In this document: piece by piece, positions 110 to 59,282 of the stretch
How positions within the stretch are numbered: position 1 is the stretch's first letter
Layout of the letters: every line of letters starts with the position of its first letter
IMG/VR virus record: IMGVR_UViG_3300025118_004856
Location: 1,163 to 65,162 of that record
From: a virus
Lineage: Duplodnaviria > Caudoviricetes
Direction: 5' to 3' (one strand)
DNA: 64,000 nucleotides
The notes under the pieces: model-generated
What the model saw: only the letters and a program-made list of their open reading frames with translations
Told to the model about the DNA's origin: nothing
The model's database searches: none
Translations under genes and position numbers: made by a program

Positions 110-182
110 GGCCGATAGTAGGATTCGAACCCACGACTTTCTCATTACAAAAGAGATGCTCTACCAGCTGAGCTATATCGGC
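110..182 (-). tRNA. tRNA-Thr(UGU)
   Basis: Minus strand GCCGATA acceptor, D arm GCTCAGCTGGTAGAGC, anticodon loop TT-TGT-AA, T loop TTCGAAT. Confidence 0.92.
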
Positions 183-189
183 ATTATTT

Positions 190-263
190 TGGTCTAAGTG
201 GAAGGAATCGAACCTCCATCTCACGACCCCAAATCGCGGATAATACCATTATACTACACTTAG
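190..263 (-). tRNA. tRNA-Pro(UGG), encoded CCA
   Basis: CTAAGTG/CACTTAG acceptor, loop TT-TGG-GG, GGAGG-TTCGATT-CCTTC, 3' CCA. Confidence 0.9.
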
Positions 264-273
264 TCTTTTTAAA

Positions 274-346
274 TGGAGACAGTAGGAATCGAACCTACCC
301 CACGGACGTTGCAAACGTCTGTCGCCCCCTTGGTACATGTGTCCTC
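274..346 (-). tRNA. tRNA-Ala(UGC), atypical D arm and acceptor
   Basis: GACG-TTTGCAA-CGTC anticodon arm, GTAGG-TTCGATT-CCTAC T arm; acceptor has a mismatch in either register. Confidence 0.7.
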
Positions 347-353
347 TTTTAGT

Positions 354-426
354 TGCAGTTGTGCCGGAATCGAACCGACGTCTCTGACTCGTAAGCCAGC
401 ATGATTCCAATTATACCAACAGCTAC
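354..426 (-). tRNA. degenerate tRNA (Val-UAC or Arg-ACG-like) with 6-nt anticodon loop
   Basis: T arm GTCGG-TTCGATT-CCGGC intact; anticodon arm CTGGC-TTACGA-GTCAG is one nt short; mismatches in acceptor and D stems. Confidence 0.55.
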
Positions 427-434
427 ACATATTA

Positions 435-506
435 TTGCGGGAGGTGGAATCGAACCACCGATTTCTGGCTTATGAGACCAGCATGTAACCACTACATCAT
501 CCCGCA
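435..506 (-). tRNA. tRNA-Met(CAU) (Met, fMet or Ile2 not resolved)
   Basis: TGCGGGA/TCCCGCA acceptor, loop CT-CAT-AA, GGTGG-TTCGATT-CCACC. Confidence 0.9.
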
Positions 507-4964: not shown

Positions 4965-6353
4965 TTACAATTTAAAAATGACCTTTTCTATATTATACTC
5001 ATAATACTTTTTATGAATCCACTCAAAGAACCTATTTGGCTTAATATAAAATATTAAACAAAACAAAATCCAATAAGGAACTTTCCCACACAATGCTCCT
5101 AACAAATAAATATTGTATCGAACATCTTTATCTTTATTAGTAAAACATTTCAATGTCGATCTTGTTGAACAGTTACTCATATCACCTGAATAACTTTTAT
5201 CAATGTAACCTTTATCTATGCAATAATCATATAAATCTGTACCTTTAATTGGATCAGTCATTGAATAACTCGTATATGAAACTTTGCTAATTTTAGAAAT
5301 AGTCATAGTGTGCAAATCATCACCAACTGTAGATTCAGGTGCTGCTAACATATAGTTCACCCATGTCTCTATGCCATACTTATGAATCAACTCTAACTTA
5401 TCTCCTATCTGCCAGATATTTGATTTTGATTTTCTATTTAAAATCTTTTCTCTCACATTTTCATTTACACTATCAATTGATAAGTGTACTGAGTGACAAC
5501 CTGCATACTTTAATATCTCAATTAAACACTCATCAACACTATCAATCCTTAAATAACAATTAAATGGTATATTGATTTTTTCTTTATAGGCATAACAAAA
5601 TTTATATAACCATGTGTCGGCTTTCAAAGCAAACAAATCATCCCCAAACTTTATAAAATCACACCTATAATTCAACATAACATATTGAATTTCTTCAATA
5701 ATCCTATCAACAGAAAATCTTCTTACTATCTTCTGCCCTCTATACATTTTATTGTAATGATTGTTAGCACAATAAGTACAACTATATGGACACCCTCTTG
5801 ATGTATAAAAAGTTTTCTTTGGAGTATCTTTTAAATATGAATTTTCTAATGTTAAATCCCTATCAGGAAAAGGTAATGAATCTAAATCTTGAGTAAGTTC
5901 TCCCATCACAGGTTTTAAATTTCGTTTATCAATACAATTATTAGCTAACAATGGGTCACTTCTGTTATTATCTACTGCTGTAAGAAAATGAGCAAACGCT
6001 TCCTCTCCTTCACCAACACAATAATAATCCATCCCACTATCTTTAAATGTCTCAGGTGCAAATGTGGCATGAGCACCACCAAGTATTGAAATATAATTTT
6101 TCCACCATCTTTTAAGCATAATATTCCAATAACAAATTTCTTCAAAATGTTGGATAGTAGTTGTGTAAGCTACCACATCACAAACGGGAGTAGTTATACC
6201 TAAAACCGGAAATGAATTTTCAAACTTCAGTTCACCTACTCTCGCATTAAAAAAATAAGTTTCATGCCCTAACTCCTTTGCTACTGCTGATAAGTAGGCA
6301 ACAGAAATTTGATCAGCGTAGTCTAATGTCGGTACAACAAACAATATTTTCAA
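4965..6353 (-). CDS. B12-binding radical SAM protein (class B methyltransferase-like)
   Basis: GGAHAT and VGEGE of cobalamin-binding domain; CPYSCTYC. Confidence 0.9.
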   Translation of the reverse strand: MKILFVVPTLDYADQISVAYLSAVAKELGHETYFFNARVGELKFENSFPVLGITTPVCDVVAYTTTIQHFEEICYWNIMLKRWWKNYISILGGAHATFAPETFKDSGMDYYCVGEGEEAFAHFLTAVDNNRSDPLLANNCIDKRNLKPVMGELTQDLDSLPFPDRDLTLENSYLKDTPKKTFYTSRGCPYSCTYCANNHYNKMYRGQKIVRRFSVDRIIEEIQYVMLNYRCDFIKFGDDLFALKADTWLYKFCYAYKEKINIPFNCYLRIDSVDECLIEILKYAGCHSVHLSIDSVNENVREKILNRKSKSNIWQIGDKLELIHKYGIETWVNYMLAAPESTVGDDLHTMTISKISKVSYTSYSMTDPIKGTDLYDYCIDKGYIDKSYSGDMSNCSTRSTLKCFTNKDKDVRYNIYLLGALCGKVPYWILFCLIFYIKPNRFFEWIHKKYYEYNIEKVIFKL

Positions 6354-8324: not shown

Positions 8325-11300
8325 TATGATAATGGATTATCTAACCCGTTTGAAACGCACCCGGCCATCCACCATGTTCCTCAATTACCTCGTCGATTTC
8401 TTTCATGATGCGGATAGTTTCGTTTAAGGCAACAACTATTTTCTGGTAGTGATTGAGATCTTCCTCGGTTAAAACACGTCCTGGGTTGCCTTTTTTTGGG
8501 CCACGATCTTTGAGCCATTTGTGACAAACCTGGTATCCTCCTATTTCGAAATCCCATATTTCTTGTTTGACACACTTAAAATGATCCACAGAATTAATTA
8601 AAATTTGTTTTTTTATGGAATCATACTTTGGGTAGCCATTTGCTACCTCGCTGTTAATTGCTCCCACATAAATCGCAATCTTTTGTCTAAAAGGATTAAT
8701 TTTGGTGATACCAGAAGCATTCCAGGGCGCATCTTTATAGTTTTCATCGAGAAGATGAAAAGCAACAAGTTCGGCACCTTTAGCCACAAGAGCCCATTTA
8801 AGATCACTTGAACCTGAAATAGGAATTCCAGGATATGTATCCATCAATGCTTGACCATATTTCTCGCGATAAGTTGGGGAATATAATATAGAGTATATAT
8901 AGTAAAAAGCAGCATACGGTGCTATCCATTGTTTATTACTATTCTTAAAGTGTTTTAGGAACGATGGGTCAATATTTGGCATAGGCTTATCATCTGTAGG
9001 TACATTAATCCAAAGGGGGAACATTTGTGTAGATCGATCATGAGAACAGCATTTTTTTTCCCCAGTCCTTCTTGAAACCAGTGCATGTGTAAATAGTTTT
9101 GTTGTTTTTACATGAGGCGTCATTAATACTAGGTTTTCCACACTAAGAATGCTCTCTGTAATTGGTCTAGCTGGAGCATCAAGTATATGAGGTTCGTAGT
9201 AAATGAGACGATAGTCAAAAGGACGATATAATATCGAATGAATTTTATCATCCGAAGTTCCATCATGGAGTAGTCTTCTTTTCGACTTCTCAACATCCCA
9301 CTTTTTTTTAACAGAATACCCAAGTTCCTCCTCTAAAGAGTTGTCTCCTCTGTCCAGTTTAGAGAATCTACTAATTTTGCTTCGAAGTGTCTGCCTATCA
9401 TGATCAATAACCAAACTGTCTCGCGAAGTGATAATGCAGCAGCTATTAATTCGCATTATGCTTCCCAAACCTTGCCAAACGGAGAATTCTTTTGTTGACT
9501 CTGCATCCTCAGGAATAAACTTATAAAATGGTTCTGAGGGATCCAAACTACTTTCAGGGAAATCCACCATGCTTTTATCTTCAACAGCTTTATATTTCTC
9601 TGCTCGATCTCCAAGTAGTCTGCTGTAGCTGCACCAACTCTTGTTTGAATTCATTGATATGGATAAAAACGAGATAGCAACCCCTTGGGAAATATCAAAA
9701 ATATTCTGATCTGCCTTTGCGGAAAATTCTTTTTCTGCCATATGACCACCAAGGTTTAAGAACTTCAATTTATTGAATAAATTGAGGAACGTCCATCTCA
9801 TCCCACGTAATGAACGTGAGCTAAGAAATCCAAAATTAGAAATATAAGAACCGATACCATGTCCGCTTTCGAATATGAGAGAGCTGAGTAACCCAAAAAA
9901 TTTTATGTAGTCGTCTTGTAAATTGAGTTCATGAGCTAGTGCTCCTTTCTCAATAATTCGTTTACCTGCAACATATCGAAAAGGCTTTATAAGAGAAACA
10001 GCAGCATCAGAAAGGTTAGCTGACATGACTGAATACGGAGGATTTCCTATAACCACTGTAAATCTAAGATTCCGCTTGATAGCATTCACTGCCTTCGCCT
10101 CATGCGCTAACGCAGGAATTTCAAAGACAAAGGTGTCTGAGAAATCCTGTGGTGGCTCAAGTGCGTTGGTCAGGTACACTCTCACTCGCTCTTCGCTGCC
10201 AAAGCAGTAGCCGGTCTCGTAAAGCTTGAGCCCGATCTTAAGATGTGCAATAGCGTAGGGTGCCATTAGCAGCTCGTAGCCGTACAAACGTGGCAGAAGG
10301 TACTTTGGAACGTACTCATTCCAGAGCTTATCGGTCTTCTTCTTGCTGTGGCCTTCGGCCTGCCACTTCTCGGTCATCGTTTTGTGGATGAGGTCGATCA
10401 CTTCTACTAAAAAGGTACCAGTACCAGTTGCGGGATCGAGAATCTGAACGAAGGGCTGATCCTTGGTTGCTCCCTCGGGAATATAGAGGTCGTCGTGGAG
10501 TTTGGTCATTTCGCCCCAGGTGATCGTGTCTGCAAGGCCATCTTCAAGACTGAACTTGGTGCGCAGCAGCTCGTCAACCGAGCGGACGATGAAGGAGACT
10601 ACAGGTCGGGGGGTATAAAACACTCCGCGCTGCATTCGTTTTTTGGCATCGTACTCCTTGAGGAAGAGCTCATAAAAGTGTATGACCGGGTCTTCCTGAG
10701 GGTTTCTGTCCCCAAAGTCCCGGACAATTGCTTCCATGTGAGTATTAGGGTTATTCAACAACTCCACTACCTCATTTACCCCGAGTTCGTCAAAGTCGAC
10801 GTCAGCACTAAGCTTGGTCCTATCGCTTTTTTCACCGACAGAAAGGAAAGTTTCCATCAGGTCTTTGAGGAAGGGATTTGTGATAGGAATCTGATCTAAG
10901 AAGTCATCTGCTGTGCTAGGTTTCGGGTTTGTAATTCGTGAAGAAAGCAGACCATAAGCAATAGTCTGTGCATACATATCAGCGAAACTGTCCTCATCTA
11001 AATCGTGAATAAGGGCTTTCTTAACTGCCTTCATTAGCATTCGGCGAGGACCGTTCTCTGTTTCAATGGATAGTACATCGTTGATACATGCTCGAATACT
11101 CTGTGCAAGTTTAGCAAGCCTTATGAACAAGGACTTAGACGTATTGATTACCTCTAAATGCTGCAATGTAAAAGCCGATGTCCATGTTTTTCGCCAAGTG
11201 TCTATATCATTTTCATCCTCTGGCCAAGTAAGTTTTGAGTGAAGTTCATCTGAAACATTATCAAGATGTAGAGGAGTATCTAAGTTATCCCATCCCAAAA

Positions 11301-12231
11301 CTTTTAGAGTAGGAAGAGATTTCTTGTTTACGTTTTGCGAAAAGTGCGCAAGGCTTATTCTTCGTTCTTCGCTTTCTCCATAGTTAGAGATGAAGAGTAA
11401 ATCGTTCATACTCCAAGCGGGTCTTTCTGAGACATTAGCAGAAGCACGCTTCCTAAATACAACTCGGCTAAGAATCCTCCGTAGGGCTACGACTGGGAGT
11501 CTTTTAGGCTCAAACTTGACAAAAAAGATAGCCCAAGGTGGTTGGTTAGGCACTAATGGTCTTAGACGTCTAATCTCCTTAATCTTAGCAGCATTTTTTC
11601 TATCGATTCCCAGTTCTTCAGGAGTATAGTCAAAGGTTAAGTCCTCAAAATTATCAGAACTGATAGGCCAATCGAGTTCGTCGTGGAGATACTTAATAAG
11701 TTGTGGGAACGCTCTAACATCTTTTAGCAAATCACGATGGTTTGGAGCCATTTATTACTCCTCGTTGAGTTCCATCCAGGCTTTAAGAATAGGTTTCACA
11801 TCTATAGGAGCATCAACACGTTTAAGATACGTATTTTTGATATGCTTTAGAACCTTTATCCGAATCTCTATTAGAGTTTTCTGGTCAGCAACGCACTTAC
11901 GTGGCGTGTTAGGTTTAGATCGAATACTCTGGATGATTTCGCCGGGTTCTTCGAGAATTACCCCTTTGTCAATGTCATAAAGATACCATCGGGTTGTTCC
12001 TGCCTCCTCGGTGAACTGTTCTTTTTCCTTATCCAGGGCAGGTAGGACGTAACAAAAAAAGACTCCATAAGTACCCTTAGCTGGGCGTTTCCGCCCACTG
12101 AATATGGAACCAGGAAGACCGCCAAGATACTTATCAAGATCAGGATTTTCCTTGAGCAACTTTTGATATTCAAGATGCATTCCCTCTACTGCTGTCTTCT
12201 TTCCTTCATAGGCATGGTTAAATTCTTTTTT
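8325..12231 (-). other. 3.9 kb foreign insertion of R-M DNA
   Basis: Visibly higher GC than flanks; starts mid-gene; flanks rejoin into one ORF; no transposase or inverted repeats. Confidence 0.75.
8341..11751 (-). CDS. N6-adenine DNA methyltransferase with C-terminal specificity domain (type IIG / type ISP-like)
   Basis: GVFYTP, LDPATGTGTF (motif I), IGNPPY (motif IV), C-terminal WDFEIGGYQVCHKWLKDR. Confidence 0.9.
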   Translation of the reverse strand: MAPNHRDLLKDVRAFPQLIKYLHDELDWPISSDNFEDLTFDYTPEELGIDRKNAAKIKEIRRLRPLVPNQPPWAIFFVKFEPKRLPVVALRRILSRVVFRKRASANVSERPAWSMNDLLFISNYGESEERRISLAHFSQNVNKKSLPTLKVLGWDNLDTPLHLDNVSDELHSKLTWPEDENDIDTWRKTWTSAFTLQHLEVINTSKSLFIRLAKLAQSIRACINDVLSIETENGPRRMLMKAVKKALIHDLDEDSFADMYAQTIAYGLLSSRITNPKPSTADDFLDQIPITNPFLKDLMETFLSVGEKSDRTKLSADVDFDELGVNEVVELLNNPNTHMEAIVRDFGDRNPQEDPVIHFYELFLKEYDAKKRMQRGVFYTPRPVVSFIVRSVDELLRTKFSLEDGLADTITWGEMTKLHDDLYIPEGATKDQPFVQILDPATGTGTFLVEVIDLIHKTMTEKWQAEGHSKKKTDKLWNEYVPKYLLPRLYGYELLMAPYAIAHLKIGLKLYETGYCFGSEERVRVYLTNALEPPQDFSDTFVFEIPALAHEAKAVNAIKRNLRFTVVIGNPPYSVMSANLSDAAVSLIKPFRYVAGKRIIEKGALAHELNLQDDYIKFFGLLSSLIFESGHGIGSYISNFGFLSSRSLRGMRWTFLNLFNKLKFLNLGGHMAEKEFSAKADQNIFDISQGVAISFLSISMNSNKSWCSYSRLLGDRAEKYKAVEDKSMVDFPESSLDPSEPFYKFIPEDAESTKEFSVWQGLGSIMRINSCCIITSRDSLVIDHDRQTLRSKISRFSKLDRGDNSLEEELGYSVKKKWDVEKSKRRLLHDGTSDDKIHSILYRPFDYRLIYYEPHILDAPARPITESILSVENLVLMTPHVKTTKLFTHALVSRRTGEKKCCSHDRSTQMFPLWINVPTDDKPMPNIDPSFLKHFKNSNKQWIAPYAAFYYIYSILYSPTYREKYGQALMDTYPGIPISGSSDLKWALVAKGAELVAFHLLDENYKDAPWNASGITKINPFRQKIAIYVGAINSEVANGYPKYDSIKKQILINSVDHFKCVKQEIWDFEIGGYQVCHKWLKDRGPKKGNPGRVLTEEDLNHYQKIVVALNETIRIMKEIDEVIEEHGGWPGAFQTG

Positions 12232-40214: not shown

Positions 40215-41384
40215 TTAAAATTTATTTTTAATAGATACTACATCACCAAAAGGAACTTTGTTTGCGTACTTAGAACCTGTACTAATCCAAAGAACTGGGT
40301 AATCAGGTGTATCACCGAAATCACTACATTCCAGATCAGTAAGATACACTAAGCACTTTGGTGTTAAACCAAGCTCATCTACTTTTTTAAACACAGGTGA
40401 AAATCTTGTACCGCCACCTCTTTCAATCTTCACATCCAATTCATCATACTCATTAAATGTTTCTACAGATTGAACTGAAGTGTTACAGCTTATAGCTGTG
40501 ATGTTGGCTTTGAATTCTCTCCCGATAACTTTTATTTCAGTCAGGAATTGATTCAGCTCCTCTTGAGTTACCGAAGTCGAAATGTCAATCCCAATTACCA
40601 AGTCTAACATATCAGACTTTAAAGATGGGAGATAAATTCCGTGCGCAACGTATCTTCTGTTAGGAGCTGTCCAAGAATAATCTGACTTTGCAGACTGTTC
40701 AACAAATCTTCTTAGCAACTGCTTCCAGTCAACTTTAGGATTCAATAATTCATGAACGAGTTTTTCAAGTTCACCTGAAAGGTTGCCTTGATTTTTTGCC
40801 GTGTTAGCCGCCTGCTGTGTAGCAGTTTTCCAATCATCTGCAGTTGCTGTAGAGTCTTCAGAATCTCTAACTTCACCGCACTCACCAGGATCATTACCTT
40901 CACCATTTACATCTCCAGGTTGACCCGCAGGTCCTTTTCCGTTTCCACCTTCATCTTCTTCTTTAGGCAACATAGTATAAATTATATCTGAAGAAAGGTC
41001 TGCATACTGATCGTCAACCAATCCACCTTTAGGAAGATAAAATACCTGACGATTTTCTTTATCTTTGATACTAAGGAGAACTAAATTGATTTGATAATCA
41101 CAAGCTTTATTCCATTGCCTTGCGTTTCTACCATTACGTCTTCCGATGTGATCGTACACGCAGTGTAAAACTTCATGTGCAGTGACCCCAGTTGTTTCAT
41201 CCAATGTTAAACTATCAATCCATTTAGGATTATAGCCCATTGACTTACCATCTGTCCAAGCAGTAGGACAAGAAGAATCTTCAATTATATTTAACTTCAT
41301 AATTAAAGAACCAAAAAATGGTTGCGTCAAAATCAAATTGATTCTGGCTTTCATAATTTTATCTTTCGCAGTCATGTTTACCAC
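40215..41384 (-). CDS. HExxH metallopeptidase-like plus vWA protein (DUF2201-like)
   Basis: TAWTDG, HEVLH, WNKACD, DISTS, GGGT, YLTD. Confidence 0.88.
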   Translation of the reverse strand: MVNMTAKDKIMKARINLILTQPFFGSLIMKLNIIEDSSCPTAWTDGKSMGYNPKWIDSLTLDETTGVTAHEVLHCVYDHIGRRNGRNARQWNKACDYQINLVLLSIKDKENRQVFYLPKGGLVDDQYADLSSDIIYTMLPKEEDEGGNGKGPAGQPGDVNGEGNDPGECGEVRDSEDSTATADDWKTATQQAANTAKNQGNLSGELEKLVHELLNPKVDWKQLLRRFVEQSAKSDYSWTAPNRRYVAHGIYLPSLKSDMLDLVIGIDISTSVTQEELNQFLTEIKVIGREFKANITAISCNTSVQSVETFNEYDELDVKIERGGGTRFSPVFKKVDELGLTPKCLVYLTDLECSDFGDTPDYPVLWISTGSKYANKVPFGDVVSIKNKF

Positions 41385-42356: not shown

Positions 42357-43352
42357 TTAGATCATCACCTTATCATTTTTTCCTAACCAAGAAATGAACG
42401 CAGTTGTTTTCGCACATTCAGGTTTTGATATTGCGATGTCTCTGGTTAAAAAGATTTCAAATTCTTTTGAAAGCCTGCCAACATACTTAATAATGTTTCC
42501 GACATTTGCCTTGGTGGCTTCCTCAACCAACTTACCGCACAATGCGTATTGAACACCTATGTTCTCAGGTACGGTAGCTTCCATAGGATTAGTTAATATT
42601 TGTTTTATGTCAGGAAGCTCATTATGAAATTTGACATAAGCACTGAACTCGGCTGCGAATCCTTCACCTGCAGCACCTGCGATGACTTCATAAAAGACCG
42701 CTTCAGGAATACCAGCTTTCATCATCTTGTCGATGTTGTGAGCGGTTCTTGGTGCGGGAGAATTTACAAGATCACCCGTGGGTTTGAAATCATGAAGCAG
42801 ATTAGGGCGGAAGTTAAAAAATGATCTTAGCATTGGGGAGATATTATTTTCAATTGCCCACTCCATCCAATCATCCTGTTTCGTTTCTAACTCAACGATA
42901 GTTACGAACCTTGACTTAACGGGTTCCAGCATTCCTGAAACACCAGCTCGGTCAACCTGTCTGTTAGTTGCAGCAATGAAAGTAACTTTGTCACTTACTT
43001 CATGGCCATTAATTCGTCTCTCTAAAAGTAATTGCATACAAGCCGCCTGAACTGATGGACTTGCCTGACCCAAATCGTCCAAGAAATAAATGATGTCTTC
43101 TTTGGTGTGGATTAATTCGTGAAGATCACCAAACGGTAAGAACTTTGCAATCTCACCTTGAATTGAGGGCATGCCTTTATAGTCGATAGGTTCATCAACT
43201 ACAGGATGTTTAATTCTAACTTTCTGTTTGAGTTTTTTTCCAACCAGTTTAATAACAGATGTTTTACCGCCACCAGGTTTTCCTTTAACAAGTACAGGTA
43301 ACTTTGCTGTTATCATATTTGTTAAAAACTCTTCCAATTGTTTTGCGTACAT
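42357..43352 (-). CDS. MoxR-like AAA+ ATPase
   Basis: GKPGGGKT, FLDDL, AATNR, SRF. Confidence 0.88.
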   Translation of the reverse strand: MYAKQLEEFLTNMITAKLPVLVKGKPGGGKTSVIKLVGKKLKQKVRIKHPVVDEPIDYKGMPSIQGEIAKFLPFGDLHELIHTKEDIIYFLDDLGQASPSVQAACMQLLLERRINGHEVSDKVTFIAATNRQVDRAGVSGMLEPVKSRFVTIVELETKQDDWMEWAIENNISPMLRSFFNFRPNLLHDFKPTGDLVNSPAPRTAHNIDKMMKAGIPEAVFYEVIAGAAGEGFAAEFSAYVKFHNELPDIKQILTNPMEATVPENIGVQYALCGKLVEEATKANVGNIIKYVGRLSKEFEIFLTRDIAISKPECAKTTAFISWLGKNDKVMI

Positions 43353-43569
43353 AGGTTTCTCCTTAATATAATAGTTAATAAAAAATGAATTTAATTTTAA
43401 AAGATTAATAAATTATTTTTTAATACCGTATCTTGTCCAAATATTCGGAACTGCAACTTGAAGCTTTAACATGTTCTGCCATTGTCTCAAGGACAAGGTC
43501 TTCAGTGCGTTCTCCTTCCAACACTTTTCATTCTTCATTAATAACCACCTCCTTTAAATAATTTTTGAC

Positions 43570-43728
43570 TATACTTTTGAATAACAATTTTTACAAAAAG
43601 AAAAATCAATTTCATCTTGTTGTTCTGTGCCTTGATTAACTGTTAAATATTTGTAGTAAACTTTACCAGTTATTTCCTTGCGACATTTATTACAATATTC
43701 TTTCCAGTTTTTTAAAGCATTTTCCATT
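43570..43728 (-). CDS. small zinc-finger protein (52 aa)
   Basis: GGAGGTG RBS; CNKC...CKNC. Confidence 0.6.
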
Positions 43729-43954
43729 TAATCACCTCCCTTAGTTAATTTGGATAACACATTCAAACCCTCTCTTTCTTTCGTAGGCGAAAGGGTTTTG
43801 ATGTGTTGACCCCGTTGTTTATAAATTTCGGTAGTGCTTAATTTTCATCATCAATTATTTTTACTACAAAAAGATTAGCAAGTTCTTTTACTGAACCATC
43901 TTTTGCATTGTTACCAAATTAAATCCTCCTATATATAATAGTTAATAATAAATT

Positions 43955-44390
43955 TTCGATTGCCCACCGATTTGCACCAGTGGGCTCGGGAAATTTACTA
44001 TTTAATTGTTTGCACTTCCGCTTTATAGCTTGTCGATTTTTTTGTCAGCCGTAAAAGCGAAAACCTTTTAAAACTCTACGACACTACCGCTTCAAGCTCG
44101 TGCTGTCCTAAAAGACCTGAGTTCTTCGCTCATTGGTCAGGATGCGCTATTGACTTGAATACCCGAGTGTTCCGATATCTTTAAATTGGTTATCCGCAGT
44201 TTGCTGGGGATCGCAGACTGAATTAGCTCCGTCTGCTTATTGTGCCCAATTCCTCAGTGAATGTTTTGAAAATTTAAATCCAGTTTACATAGTTACGATA
44301 GTTGTCTGCACTTGAGATGTCGTATTCTGTTGAACCGCTTTGAGCCTCCTTGTAGGCATGGCAACTGTGTTTGAAAAAATAATTGCCGTG
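43955..44390 (-). ncRNA. putative large structured non-coding RNA / leader
   Basis: GC-enriched, no ORF in track, many nested helices and a long-range 7-bp pairing. Confidence 0.55.
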
Positions 44391-44434
44391 ATTAAAATTG
44401 AAATAATTAAATTGTAAATATCATTTATCATCCT

Positions 44435-44475
44435 GATAATAATATATATTATTTTTTATTATATTGCCAGGAAAA
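44435..44475 (-). promoter_or_regulatory. candidate sigma70-like early promoter
   Basis: CTGGCA-N18-TATATT in AT-rich DNA upstream of the structured leader; weak match. Confidence 0.35.
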
Positions 44476-44676
44476 AATGAGCCCTTTTTCACTTTTCTTG
44501 CGTTTTATTCATAACTCCTATAGAAACAAGCACTTACAAGGTGAAAAAAACGCAGAAAAACAGCTATTTTTTGTGAAAAAACTTAGTTTTATATGGACAG
44601 TCTATTATTTTTTATTTAAAAATAAAATTTAAAATTTAAAAATAATATAGTATAATAAAAATGAAAGGAGAATTTT

Positions 44677-44835
44677 ATGAGGAGAGTTGAAAAAGATGAG
44701 ACGTATAAAACATATTCATTTTATTTAAAGGGTCTGCTGGTTAAAAAATTAGAGGATGAAGCTATCAAAGAAAAAAGATCAACTTCAAAACAACTGGAAT
44801 TAATTTTAGAAAAATTTCTAAATGGTAAGAGTTAA
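44677..44835 (+). CDS. ribbon-helix-helix (Arc/CopG-like) regulator, 52 aa
   Basis: AAAGGAG RBS, upstream TATAAT; YSFYL strand then LVKKLEDEAIKEKRSTSKQLELILEKFL; below ORF-track cutoff. Confidence 0.75.
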   Translation: MRRVEKDETYKTYSFYLKGLLVKKLEDEAIKEKRSTSKQLELILEKFLNGKS

Positions 44836-45371
44836 AACATATCTGATAAAAAATTCTTTGTTAAACCTGTAACAAAACCAATAGCACATCCTGGAACAAC
44901 ACCGACCCCAGCAAACAAGCTACCTGTAAGACAACCAGCCCCAGTATGTTCAGCTACTGTTCCGACTTTTGCTATTTTATTTTTTGTACCTTTACTTTCT
45001 AATTGTACAATTTCTTCACGGTAACGATCTGCTAATTTATCTAAAAACTTTATTGCATCATCTTGTTGAGCAACTATCTTTTTATAATTAGGAATTATCG
45101 TTCCTTCATTTATCTTAACATCTTCTTCGTGTAACCTGATCTGTTCCAAAAGATTTTCATTTGCTTCATTTAAAGTGGTCAATGTATTTTTTAAATCTTC
45201 AATCTGCTTTTGTTGCATCTCTACTGTTTCAACAGCATAGATATAATCTTTTTCTGTAACTACTTTTTCCTCACCAAAAGCAAATTTAAAGAATCCCAAA
45301 ATGAGAACTATAAACACAGCATATATAAACATTCTCACTACAGAAATCTTCTTGTCAACTTCATAGCTCAT
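44832..45371 (-). CDS. membrane-anchored coiled-coil lysis-module protein (spanin-like)
   Basis: N-terminal TM, coiled coil, C-terminal glycine zipper; in lysis cassette. Confidence 0.55.
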   Translation of the reverse strand: MSYEVDKKISVVRMFIYAVFIVLILGFFKFAFGEEKVVTEKDYIYAVETVEMQQKQIEDLKNTLTTLNEANENLLEQIRLHEEDVKINEGTIIPNYKKIVAQQDDAIKFLDKLADRYREEIVQLESKGTKNKIAKVGTVAEHTGAGCLTGSLFAGVGVVPGCAIGFVTGLTKNFLSDMF

Positions 45372-56093: not shown

Positions 56094-59000
56094 TTAAGAA
56101 TTCACGAGATTAAAATTTTCTGTATTTTGTTCTTCTACCATCAATCTAAAATCTCCTATGTTTCTATTTTGATTATCTGAATTCACTTCATCTATTATTG
56201 AATTTAAATCTTTTGCGAATAAATTTTCTACAAATACATTTATAACTTTACCTCCTCCACCTCCTAATGGAACTATTGCTTCAGGTCCTTGTTCAGCCAT
56301 CAAACCTACTCCCCCAGTTTTTGTCCCTAGTAGTATAGTTGGTTCTTTTATAATTCCTCCGTCTGCAAATATACTACTAAGTCCACCCACTATACCTCCA
56401 ATCACAGTTCCAATACCAGGAGCAACAAGCGTACCTGCTGCTGCACCACCAGCTATTCCTCCAATAGTACTTCCTGCTTGACCACCTACAACTTCTTCCC
56501 CTAAAGCACTGCCAATTTGACCACCTATCAACCCAGCTCCACCAGCACCAAGAAGCACCCCCCCTGATGCACCTGTGCCTGCAAATCCTGCAGAGGTAAT
56601 AGAACCTCCCGCAGTTGTCGGACCAATGAATCCTGCTACTGGAGCACCTGCTGAACTACCACCGAAAAGACCAGCTATTTGGGTTAGATTACCGATTCCA
56701 CCTCCTCCAACTTGACCTCCAGATACACCAGTAGGACCACCTCCCAATGCACCAGGAAATAAAAGTCTAAATACTGCCGATGCTGCTGCTTGTGCTGCCA
56801 TTTGAGCAAGTGCATCAATAAAAAGATCAAGCATTCGTTGCATCAATGTTTTAAATGAATTTCCAATATCTTTAAAATTTCCTTTTAATGCATCAGTCAC
56901 AATACTCTTAAAACTATCTTTTAAAACACCATAAGTAGCTATTCCAAAATCAGCTATTTGTTGGTTAACAGATTTAAAAGATAACAATTGACTCGCAATA
57001 CCAATTCGAAACGCATCAAGACGAGTTACTTCACCTTCAGCTAATATATTATTTAGTTTATTATGAATCTCTTGTCTTGCTTTAGCAGTAAGATTTTCGT
57101 CGTTGACTTGTATTAGTAATTGAGCAGCAGATTCTTGTGTGACCTCTTTTTTAAGTTCCCTTAATTTTTCTGTTGTAGCTCTTTCTATATTTACAATTGC
57201 TTCTGCTGCATTTTCTTTAATCAACGCTTCAGCTCGAGAACCTGCTTCAATTTCTAATAATTTTTCATTAGCAGCATCTCTAACGATTTCTATTTGAATC
57301 TTTTCTTGTGCTTTGACAACTCTGGTCAAATCTTTTATTCCGATTATCCTTGTTTTATTTGCAAGAGTTTGCGTTTTTAGAATTTCTTTTATTTTTCCTT
57401 CTTCTAAAGCAAAAGCCTGCAATTGTAGTTTTCTCCTAATACTTATTTCTTTTTTCAATACTTTTGTTATCTCTAACTGAGAAACTATAAAATTTGGAAC
57501 TTGCTTTTGTCCTAATTTTAATATCAATAATTGTGCTTCTTCTAATGTAGTAAGAACTTTCTTAGTTTCTGTTTGTACAGTTACAAATGGTTTTTTAATA
57601 GGTTCATCAATTTCTTTTACAGTCTTTTTTAAATTAGCAAGTTGTTTCTCCATAGCAATCAAATCTTCAGTTGATGCAGGAACAACTTTACTGAATCCAA
57701 ATAAACCATCTTCTAATTTAGTACCAGTTCTTATTTGTTGTTCAAGAAGTTTGATTTGATCATTGAGTCTGTCAGTAGTATCAATAGCTCCATTTAAAGA
57801 TTCTGCTAAAAATTTTACAGTCTTATCAGTAGCAGTTATAGCAGCTAAAAATCCAACCGCCCCTATTTTACCAAAAAAGATAGATCCTAATAATCCACCA
57901 ACACCAAAAAAAGTAACATTTTCTAAAAATATTTTAGCTAAATCTCCTATAATACTTACAACATCTAAAAAAGGCTGTTTTAAATCTCGCATTACGTTTA
58001 ATATGCCTTTACTTGTTTCTTTAAATTGAATGTACCCTTTATCTAATAATTCTCTAACTGCATCTTTATTTTTAGTAAACTTATCAGCTACTCCATCCAA
58101 TATTTTTTGTAAATCTCCCCCTGCTGTTTTAATTAAATCATTAACAACAGGTAACAAAACATCACCAATTGCGAATGCAGCTTGTCCTAATCTATTCCCT
58201 AATAATCTTAACTTACTTGCAGTACCACTAATAAAAATATCAAACTCCTTTTGTAAAGAAGTCCCTCTTTTTACTTCATCACTTGCAGTTTTTAAATTCT
58301 TCCCCATCAATTCAGTACTATTAGATAAAGCATTAAATACTAATCTTGCTCTTGAACCTGAAATACCAACAGCTTCAAATTGTGCTATAACTTGATCAGC
58401 AGGTAATTTACTAATAGCTTCAGCCCACTTTTGAATTGTTCCTATCCCATCTTTTTGTATAGCTAATCTAAACTCTGCAGCAGTAAGACCCATCTGCTTT
58501 CCAAAAACATCCGCCTTCTTAATCATATTTGCAAAAGTATTACTAACAGCAGTACCAGCCAACTCTGCTCTGAATCCTAAATCTATTAAAGTAGCACTTA
58601 ATCCAGCAACTTCAGAAGCACTTAAACCTATTTGCAGAGATGCAGGACCTAACCTACGCATAAAATCAGCTATCTGAGGAACTTTAGCAGTTGTAGTATT
58701 TTCCAATTCATTCATAACCCCAGCTAAATTTTCTATTTCTGCTATAGGGATCTTAAAAACATTTGCTATTCGTGCCAATGAGGTAGCAGCTTCTTCAGCT
58801 GTAAAATTAGTAACTGTTGCAACCTTAGCAATAGTCTCAGTAAATTTAAGGATATCAGGAGCATTTTGGATACCAAGCTGACCAGCTACAGCTCCAATTT
58901 CTGCTAATTCTCTTGCTGATATTGGAATAGCAGTAGATAGATTAATAAAATCTTTTCTTAATGTGTCTATAGTTTTTGCAGATAAACCAGTAGTTTTTCT

Positions 59001-59282
59001 AACACTCAACATAGATTTTTCCAAATCTATAGTCCTTTTTATTGTTACTCCAAGCCCAGCAGCTAATCCTAAACCAGCAATTACAGTAAATCGTTTTACA
59101 GCTGTTCCAGCAAATTCAGCAGCTCTTTTTATCTTTAATCCAGCTTTATCAAATCCTGTAGAAAACCTTCTGGCTGCAGCAGAACCTTTTTTATCAAGTT
59201 TCTCAACTTCACCAGTAAACTGACGAATGCCTTTTATAGCACCAGAAGGATCAGTAGTTATGGAAAGTGAAATCACTGCCAT
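56094..59282 (-). CDS. tail tape measure protein (TP901-family core)
   Basis: VRKTTG, AGQLGI, AELAGTA core; C-terminal FADGGII...AEQGPEAIVPL. Confidence 0.92.
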   Translation of the reverse strand: MAVISLSITTDPSGAIKGIRQFTGEVEKLDKKGSAAARRFSTGFDKAGLKIKRAAEFAGTAVKRFTVIAGLGLAAGLGVTIKRTIDLEKSMLSVRKTTGLSAKTIDTLRKDFINLSTAIPISARELAEIGAVAGQLGIQNAPDILKFTETIAKVATVTNFTAEEAATSLARIANVFKIPIAEIENLAGVMNELENTTTAKVPQIADFMRRLGPASLQIGLSASEVAGLSATLIDLGFRAELAGTAVSNTFANMIKKADVFGKQMGLTAAEFRLAIQKDGIGTIQKWAEAISKLPADQVIAQFEAVGISGSRARLVFNALSNSTELMGKNLKTASDEVKRGTSLQKEFDIFISGTASKLRLLGNRLGQAAFAIGDVLLPVVNDLIKTAGGDLQKILDGVADKFTKNKDAVRELLDKGYIQFKETSKGILNVMRDLKQPFLDVVSIIGDLAKIFLENVTFFGVGGLLGSIFFGKIGAVGFLAAITATDKTVKFLAESLNGAIDTTDRLNDQIKLLEQQIRTGTKLEDGLFGFSKVVPASTEDLIAMEKQLANLKKTVKEIDEPIKKPFVTVQTETKKVLTTLEEAQLLILKLGQKQVPNFIVSQLEITKVLKKEISIRRKLQLQAFALEEGKIKEILKTQTLANKTRIIGIKDLTRVVKAQEKIQIEIVRDAANEKLLEIEAGSRAEALIKENAAEAIVNIERATTEKLRELKKEVTQESAAQLLIQVNDENLTAKARQEIHNKLNNILAEGEVTRLDAFRIGIASQLLSFKSVNQQIADFGIATYGVLKDSFKSIVTDALKGNFKDIGNSFKTLMQRMLDLFIDALAQMAAQAAASAVFRLLFPGALGGGPTGVSGGQVGGGGIGNLTQIAGLFGGSSAGAPVAGFIGPTTAGGSITSAGFAGTGASGGVLLGAGGAGLIGGQIGSALGEEVVGGQAGSTIGGIAGGAAAGTLVAPGIGTVIGGIVGGLSSIFADGGIIKEPTILLGTKTGGVGLMAEQGPEAIVPLGGGGGKVINVFVENLFAKDLNSIIDEVNSDNQNRNIGDFRLMVEEQNTENFNLVNS

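Follow-up and report, generated by a model that had tools for sequence, protein, structure and literature searches.

A GC-rich, largely non-coding stretch between the late and early genes of a marine siphovirus-like phage: a possible early-operon leader with one stable hairpin

What is an island of GC-rich DNA doing directly ahead of the early genes of an AT-rich phage? We addressed this question for positions 43955-44390 of a 64,000-nucleotide (nt) window from the IMG/VR virus record IMGVR_UViG_3300025118_004856 (Duplodnaviria; Caudoviricetes). The window is nearly all of the source record, which has 65,162 bases and an estimated completeness of 46%. A first-pass annotation, made from the letters alone, had taken the stretch for a large folded RNA, either a cis antiterminator resembling put or EAR or a new class of large phage non-coding RNA (ncRNA). 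Our analysis leads us to prefer, tentatively, a different reading: the stretch is perhaps the long untranslated leader, or control region, of the early operon, with one hairpin that serves processing, stability or translation control.

The stretch lies on the sense (minus) strand, which carries every long open reading frame (ORF) of the window, with the tail module upstream and the early module directly downstream. The first-pass annotation had thus placed it correctly before the early genes; the tail module lies to its right and the ATPase and replication genes to its left. It had also rightly described a GC-enriched island between AT-rich flanks: the GC (guanine plus cytosine) content of 43955-44390 is 0.424, compared to 0.331 for the window and 0.265 and 0.199 for the two flanks. 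Just 2.6% of the 436-nt windows across the 64 kb are equally GC-rich, and the GC content of the island falls inside the range of the richest coding windows. The first ~330 nt (43955-44284), the GC-rich core of the leader on the minus strand, are non-coding by every test run and showed no coding signal, protein similarity or Rfam family. All six frames of this part hold many stop codons of all three types, at least seven per frame, and the codon-usage scores are negative in 6 of 6 frames. Period-3 power across the whole island was 0.47, compared to 0.68 in shuffles and to a median of 5.17 and a minimum of 0.84 in 90 coding windows. When the six frames were read through, with X at stops, they matched no Pfam and no PHROG family, and tblastn of these translations against the loci fetched by then found an identical copy in one locus, L083, and nothing else. 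An alternative genetic code was considered and rejected, since every frame has all three stop types and no single reassignment opens any of them. The earlier statement that the island contains no ORF therefore stands for 43955-44284 and falls for 44285-44390, the rightmost 105 nt, which lie inside a 48-amino-acid (aa) hydrophobic ORF (44285-44431, minus) that has a strong, coding-like period-3 signal and an uncertain coding status.

The strongest feature of the stretch is a long hairpin at its downstream end (44002-43944, minus). Of its about 25 base pairs (bp), 12 form an AU-rich lower stem, 3 a middle stem and 10 a GC-rich upper stem; the hairpin has two small internal loops and is capped by a GCAA (GNRA-type) tetraloop at 43975-43972. 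The hairpin folds with -28.2 kcal/mol (z -5.73) on the minus strand and with -22.3 kcal/mol (z -3.83) on the plus strand, and ranks fifth in stability when all 80-nt windows of the minus strand are compared across the 64 kb. The minus-strand RNA is 5.9 kcal/mol more stable than its plus-strand counterpart because of three G.U pairs, and this strand bias points to a sense-strand RNA, not a DNA cruciform. The 3' edge of the hairpin lies 13 nt upstream of the AGGAGG Shine-Dalgarno sequence (43930-43925) of the first early gene. An intrinsic terminator at 43944-44002 was rejected: a terminator scan calls none there, and the stem is followed by AAUCGAAAAUUU, with no U-run. Canonical terminators of this phage, with a GC stem and an immediate U-run, lie between genes on the sense strand at 40205-40175, 49270-49215 and 63890-63815. 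Some canonical terminators sit inside the early gene block, where canonical or near-canonical hairpins are found at 41430-41405 and 40205-40175.

The large folded RNA of the first-pass annotation had been built on a series of complementary pairs and repeats, all of which are present. The pairs 44077-44083/44318-44324, 44091-44096/44154-44159, 44184-44189/44246-44251 and 44213-44218/44231-44236 are exact, as are the TCCT/AGGA, GACC/GGTC and TGAG/CTCA stems and the GCCCAC/GTGGGC hairpin, and on the minus strand AAGCGG occurs three times and AAGTGCARACAA twice. We compared the repeat counts with those of dinucleotide shuffles. Exact inverted 6-, 7- and 8-mers number 32, 6 and 2 in the element, with shuffle means of 30.9, 8.8 and 2.8, and its 12-mer and 15-mer direct repeats were equalled or exceeded in 53 and 26 of 300 shuffles, respectively. 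The complementary pairs and repeats of the stretch are at chance for a 436-nt sequence of such composition.

Folding relative to dinucleotide shuffles gave z -3.26 (minus) and -3.10 (plus) for 43940-44400, and this whole-region z of -3.3 is due almost entirely to the single 25-bp hairpin 44002-43944 (z -5.7). With the terminal hairpin removed, the core 44005-44400 (396 nt) had z -1.55, and 7 of 100 shuffles folded equally well. A 120-nt scan of 43700-44689 showed a single strong outlier inside 43880-44690, at 43940-44059 (minus -5.6, plus -3.0), with central windows from +0.9 to -2.4; the other outlier, near 43730-43849, is a separate second hairpin. Windows of 300 nt starting at 44000, 44050 and 44100 had z -0.97 to -1.16, compared to a background of -0.44 +/- 1.27 (19 windows across the phage). 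With its stems at chance frequency and a core that folds no better than shuffles, the large folded RNA was not supported. Significance of the minimum free energy (MFE) is a weak test for real ncRNAs, and because of this the result withholds support from a large fold without disproving it, the evidence for one being weak.

The GC-rich core may contain further local stems, without having been shown to be one large folded RNA. A three-way junction is predicted on the minus strand at 44180-44255, where AAUUGG/CCAAUU closes two hairpins (-22.4 kcal/mol, z -3.58; plus-strand z -2.33); this region was chosen post hoc. The nested hairpin with the TCCT, GACC and TGAG stems at 44100-44150 folds on either strand, with -19.3 kcal/mol and z -4.0 on the plus strand and -12.7 kcal/mol and z -2.06 on the minus strand. 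When the 5' flank was included, the MFE structure closed the whole element through an AT-rich 5'-3' pairing of 43990-44011 with 44401-44422 (22 nt, 86%) that competes with the lower stem of the terminal hairpin, whereas the centroid structure instead keeps the hairpin.

We searched 339 fetched loci with nhmmer, 241 of which surround relatives of the MoxR/AAA_5-type ATPase encoded at 42357-43352 (minus), the first conserved gene of the early module. The ATPase-anchored loci comprise 1 + 80 viral (IMG/VR), 80 metagenome and 80 GTDB loci, with ATPase identities of 35-56% besides L083, and leave out the contig of the ATPase relative P0002 (73% identity). The sole homolog of the element was found in L083, a Tara scaffold of 3.9 kb with 93% ATPase identity; the remaining fetched loci, in which the nearest ATPase relatives are 50-56% identical, contained no copy. 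L083 and window positions 44584-43919 have 0 differences over 666 nt, compared to 4 differences in the adjacent 447 nt, and at the neighbouring rate of 4/447 the probability of 0 differences in 666 nt is ~0.003. This hints at constraint on the element, a question that two mosaic genomes cannot settle. Covariation has nothing to work on, because the sole homolog is 100% identical. Divergence between the window and L083 is blocky, at 0-19% per 150 nt, and is ~0.7-1.3% beside the element. One block of 18-19% divergence lies at 42912-43211 inside the ATPase gene, over a background of ~1%, and a second block of 14% at 40962-41111; both indicate mosaic recombination between close phage variants.

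The L083 scaffold also identifies the gene that follows the element. The first early gene encodes an intact protein of 117 aa in L083, starting 27 nt after the hairpin with the arrangement AGGAGG-N7-ATG, whereas in the window it carries a 274-nt internal deletion (junction 43919/43918; L083 counterpart L083:667-940). The alignment with L083 and the ORF list showed that the window retains the Shine-Dalgarno sequence and the 3' end of this gene alone (43838-43930, minus). The 117-aa protein is an orphan for which no relatives were found. Since an intact 117-aa gene follows the hairpin and Shine-Dalgarno sequence in L083, the element precedes the first early gene.

Other searches for relatives of the element gave little. 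No match was found by blastn against 50,697 phage records, and among four exact or gapped DNA patterns run against IMG/VR two had no match and two gave 91 and 7 stretches that are similar in pattern alone. Rfam 15 at gathering threshold reported four tRNAs at 110-506 in the window and nothing else. At E<=10 (43700-44700) the matches inside the element were weak, namely cspA with 10.4 bits (gathering 78) and alpha_tmRNA with 9.5 bits (gathering 50), and ARAGORN found no tRNA or tmRNA in it. Thus, cmscan assigned no family, and the gathering scores of GOLLD, ROOL, HEARO, OLE, tmRNA, introns, RNase P, 6S, riboswitches and self-cleaving ribozymes were not reached. With no Rfam family and a sole homolog that is identical, neither a put- or EAR-like antiterminator nor a new large ncRNA class was supported. 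The first-pass annotation had named three outcomes that would speak against a large RNA; two of these, a core that folds no better than shuffles and a lack of diverged conserved homologs, are largely what we observed, and the third, a protein match revealing a decayed gene, was not found in the Pfam, PHROG and tblastn searches. In marine metagenomes the stretch was found in 20 DNA runs belonging to 16 studies; no RNA run is listed among the runs that hold it, which says nothing on expression.

Upstream of the stretch, the region between the presumed divergent promoters (44391-44676, both strands) is AT-rich, with GC 0.199, and contains repeats of GTGAAAAA, with direct copies at 44541-44549 and 44573-44581 and an inverted copy at 44485-44492. 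A 19-nt inverted repeat (44493-44511/44542-44560) lies in the same region. Sigma-70-like hexamers, as consensus matches alone, are found at 44439-44411 (TTATCA-17-TACAAT) and 44470-44441 on the minus strand and at 44628-44656 on the plus strand. Next to this region, on the plus strand, lies a 52-aa CopG/Arc-like ribbon-helix-helix gene (44677-44835), which points away from the early operon and towards the last late gene. Its product matched PHROG phrog_7325 (CopG-like repressor; E 9.2e-5) and phrog_2639 (Arc-like; E 0.0046) and no Pfam family. The GTGAAAAA copies and the 19-nt inverted repeat could be operators for this protein.

We favour an untranslated leader with these elements arranged as follows. 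Host RNA polymerase would start in the AT-rich divergent promoter region (~44400-44470), probably under control of the neighbouring CopG/Arc-like repressor, and transcription would run leftwards for ~480 nt to the first early gene. The hairpin 44002-43944 would then act on the mRNA as an RNase III-type site, a 5' stabiliser or a translation-control hairpin. The position, strand context, non-coding nature and GC excess of the stretch, and the stability and strand bias of its hairpin, come from the analysis itself; the transcription start, the role of the repressor and the processing or stability function of the hairpin are what we infer from this arrangement. The hairpin, with its 12 + 3 + 10 bp, has the shape of an RNase III-type substrate, that is at least ~20 bp of mostly continuous double-stranded RNA in a leader. 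Precedents for early leaders with RNase III-type hairpins are the N leader of lambda (between nutL and N) and the R sites of the T7 early mRNA. Here, as in these systems, an untranslated leader would separate an early promoter region from the first early gene. The hairpin is long and imperfect, spans about two helical turns interrupted by small internal loops and stands a few nt before the ribosome-binding site, and a second similar hairpin lies between the next cistrons. Unlike in these systems, there is no sequence relation, and the leader of ~480 nt is longer and GC-richer; unlike in lambda, no nut-like box or N-like protein was identified.

Several observations weigh against the leader we propose. 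A plain leader needs no GC content of 0.424, in the top 2.6% of the window, and this excess suggests further constraint. When the MFE of 460-nt windows was regressed on GC content, it was the plus strand of the region that ranked high (9 of 381), with the minus strand at 157 of 381, and the hairpin 44100-44150 is likewise more stable on the plus strand. The predicted promoters are consensus matches within AT-rich DNA, RNase III-type cleavage at the terminal hairpin is suggested by its shape alone, and because divergence is blocky, mosaic exchange and not selection may explain the identity with L083. If the leader interpretation is right, phage early-operon leaders with a hairpin for processing or stability would gain one more example, whose main use would lie in annotating this phage, which turns up across many marine metagenome runs. 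It would also warn against taking every GC-rich island without ORFs for a large ncRNA because many stems can be picked from it by hand.

The GC excess is left unexplained by a plain leader, and a new structured RNA is therefore retained as an unlikely alternative. It would be a lineage-specific large structured minus-strand RNA of ~430-480 nt, acting either in cis as a processive antiterminator or on its own as a phage ncRNA. That so GC-rich a non-coding island (top 2.6%) occurs in an AT-rich genome, that it is unchanged over 666 nt in L083, that the whole-region z is about -3 and that a 5'-3' closing pairing is predicted (43990-44011/44401-44422; 22 nt, 86%) would all fit such an RNA, and the weakness of MFE significance as an ncRNA test leaves room for it. 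Set against these are the core z of -1.55 with 7 of 100 shuffles as good, complementary k-mers at chance, the rank of 157 of 381 for the minus strand given its GC content, sub-hairpins of mixed strand preference and a closing helix that is AT-rich and partly inside the presumed promoter; moreover, Rfam yielded no family even at E<=10 beyond weak sub-gathering matches, and nhmmer was blank in the other fetched loci, those around the 241 ATPase relatives included. For an antiterminator, the terminator hairpins downstream within the early genes (41430-41405, 40205-40175) would provide a target. The put RNAs of HK022 and EAR are cis-acting processive antiterminators of ~70-120 nt with two defined stem-loops; like them, the stretch lies just downstream of a predicted early promoter and has terminator hairpins farther along the operon, but no Rfam family matches it, and it differs from their length of ~70-120 nt and two stem-loops. 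With GOLLD and ROOL, large phage-associated ncRNAs, it shares a GC-rich ORF-free island of several hundred nt in a phage genome. Unlike these, the element has no cmscan match at gathering threshold or E<=10, is shorter, does not lie beside the tRNA cluster (110-506) and has no family of diverged copies that we found. A more specific form, which we consider quite doubtful, is a new lineage-restricted RNA, made as the opening part of the early-operon transcript, that would switch between a 5'-3' closed form and the GNRA-capped hairpin form. It builds on the competing MFE and centroid structures, both of them thermodynamic predictions. Without any protein, such a switch would govern the read-through or processing that leads into the early genes and would be unrelated to put, EAR, GOLLD and ROOL; if the GC excess does reflect a structured RNA, it would be a new class of cis-regulatory RNA controlling phage early transcription. 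Two natural variants exist, with the downstream gene intact or deleted, which allow a direct test.

Debris of one or more decayed genes without present function, with the GC content of former coding sequence, is also unlikely. The 274-nt deletion in the adjoining 117-aa orphan gene, the lack of relatives of both the 117-aa and the 48-aa ORF, the absence of significant folding in the core and a GC content within the range of the richest coding windows are all consistent with decay. However, a decay deep enough to leave at least seven stops of mixed types per frame should have eroded the GC content towards the 0.20-0.27 of true intergenic DNA, and neutral DNA is not expected to keep 0 of 666 differences while its neighbours differ. 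The period-3 power of 0.47 is below the minimum of 0.84 of the 90 coding windows, and the six read-through frames held no Pfam or PHROG family, with tblastn in the fetched loci returning the identical L083 alone. A DNA-level element, such as a replication origin, a genome terminus or terminal-repeat junction, or an operator array, strikes us as rather improbable. The position at a module boundary, with AT-rich regions on both sides that could unwind, would suit such an element, and one DnaA-box-like 9-mer lies at 44190-44198; however, DnaA-like boxes are not enriched (31 compared to 24.4 expected, a count that 5 of 100 shuffles reach), and no initiator or terminase gene adjoins. Furthermore, AAGCGGWAGTG and AAGTGCARACAA, two copies each, are confined to the element and occur nowhere else in the 64 kb at up to one mismatch, and both strands fold about equally overall. 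Against this, repeat counts are within chance, and the G.U pairs and GNRA-type loop of the strongest feature make sense only as minus-strand RNA. We regard as very unlikely that the 48-aa ORF (44431-44285) is a small membrane-peptide gene with a long fold-back 3' region, in the manner of a hok-type type I toxin mRNA. The period-3 power of this ORF (3.06) was reached by 0 of 1000 shuffles, and its own frame scored best of six in codon usage, yet that score of -0.02 lies below the lower 10% quantile (q10) of real genes in frame (0.10). The predicted peptide has an N-terminal hydrophobic stretch and then a basic/polar tail. As in hok/sok mRNAs, a small hydrophobic ORF would stand at the 5' end of a transcript of ~500 nt with a predicted 5'-3' fold-back, which appears in the MFE structure, and with a possible antisense promoter, for which the candidate here is the plus-strand TTACCA-17-TATAAT at 43911-43939 (a consensus match alone). 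Unlike hok/sok, and unlike the neighbouring genes, which all have a strong Shine-Dalgarno sequence, the ORF has no spaced one; it has no family match and, among 1.84 billion representative proteins, matches itself only. The fold-back pairing is AT-rich and missing from the centroid structure.

The stretch is followed by further features of the early region. A second long hairpin at 43752-43812 (minus; -26.8 kcal/mol, z -4.88), identical in L083, ranks eleventh in stability among the 80-nt windows and lies shortly before the Shine-Dalgarno sequence of a 52-aa cysteine-rich gene (43569-43727). The 16-mer TTATTAACTATTATAT (43933-43948, minus) stands directly before the Shine-Dalgarno sequence of the first early gene and has an exact second copy at 43366-43381, before that of the ATPase gene; its other six matches in the 64 kb each have three mismatches, as chance predicts. 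This 16-mer could be a shared regulatory or promoter-proximal site. The idea that it is a promoter of a phage RNA polymerase was rejected, as the large proteins of the phage included no recognisable RNA polymerase.

Between the last late gene (44832-45371) and the early genes is a gap of 1.1 kb that contains both the stretch and the 52-aa CopG/Arc-like gene. The tail module to the right includes a tape-measure protein at 56094-59282 and closes with small genes without clear function. To its left, the MoxR/AAA_5 ATPase gene is followed in order by genes for a weakly DUF3150-like protein and a DUF2201 metallopeptidase/VWA protein, with a helicase, DnaB, DNA polymerase and SbcC further left. The stretch thus lies where the late genes of this phage give way to the early ones. 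At 8341-11751 and 4965-6353 (minus) lie genes for a Type ISP-like methyltransferase/specificity protein of 1136 aa (Type_ISP_C E 1.5e-63) and for a radical-SAM protein that carries a B12-binding domain. The tRNA cluster at 110-506 (minus) comprises five genes, of which the one at 354-426 had no assignable anticodon in ARAGORN and was missed at the Rfam gathering threshold.

Possible positional analogues of the stretch occur in the loci of the 241 ATPase relatives, which contain 61 ORF-free gaps of at least 250 nt. Rfam searches of 18 loci with such gaps found one tRNA and one twister-P3 ribozyme, and none resembling the element. Two related metagenome loci have in common a 1243-nt stretch upstream of the ATPase gene without an ORF of at least 60 aa (L109:458-1700 and L111:458-1700); its GC content of 0.41 equals that of the locus, and it has no gathering-level Rfam match in L109. 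The type-P3 twister ribozyme (L086:2152-2222, plus; 40.2 bits compared to a gathering score of 39.9, E 1e-4) lies in a 589-nt ORF-free gap ~780 nt upstream of an ATPase gene whose product is 49% identical, and RNA processing elements may recur in the early leaders of these phages.

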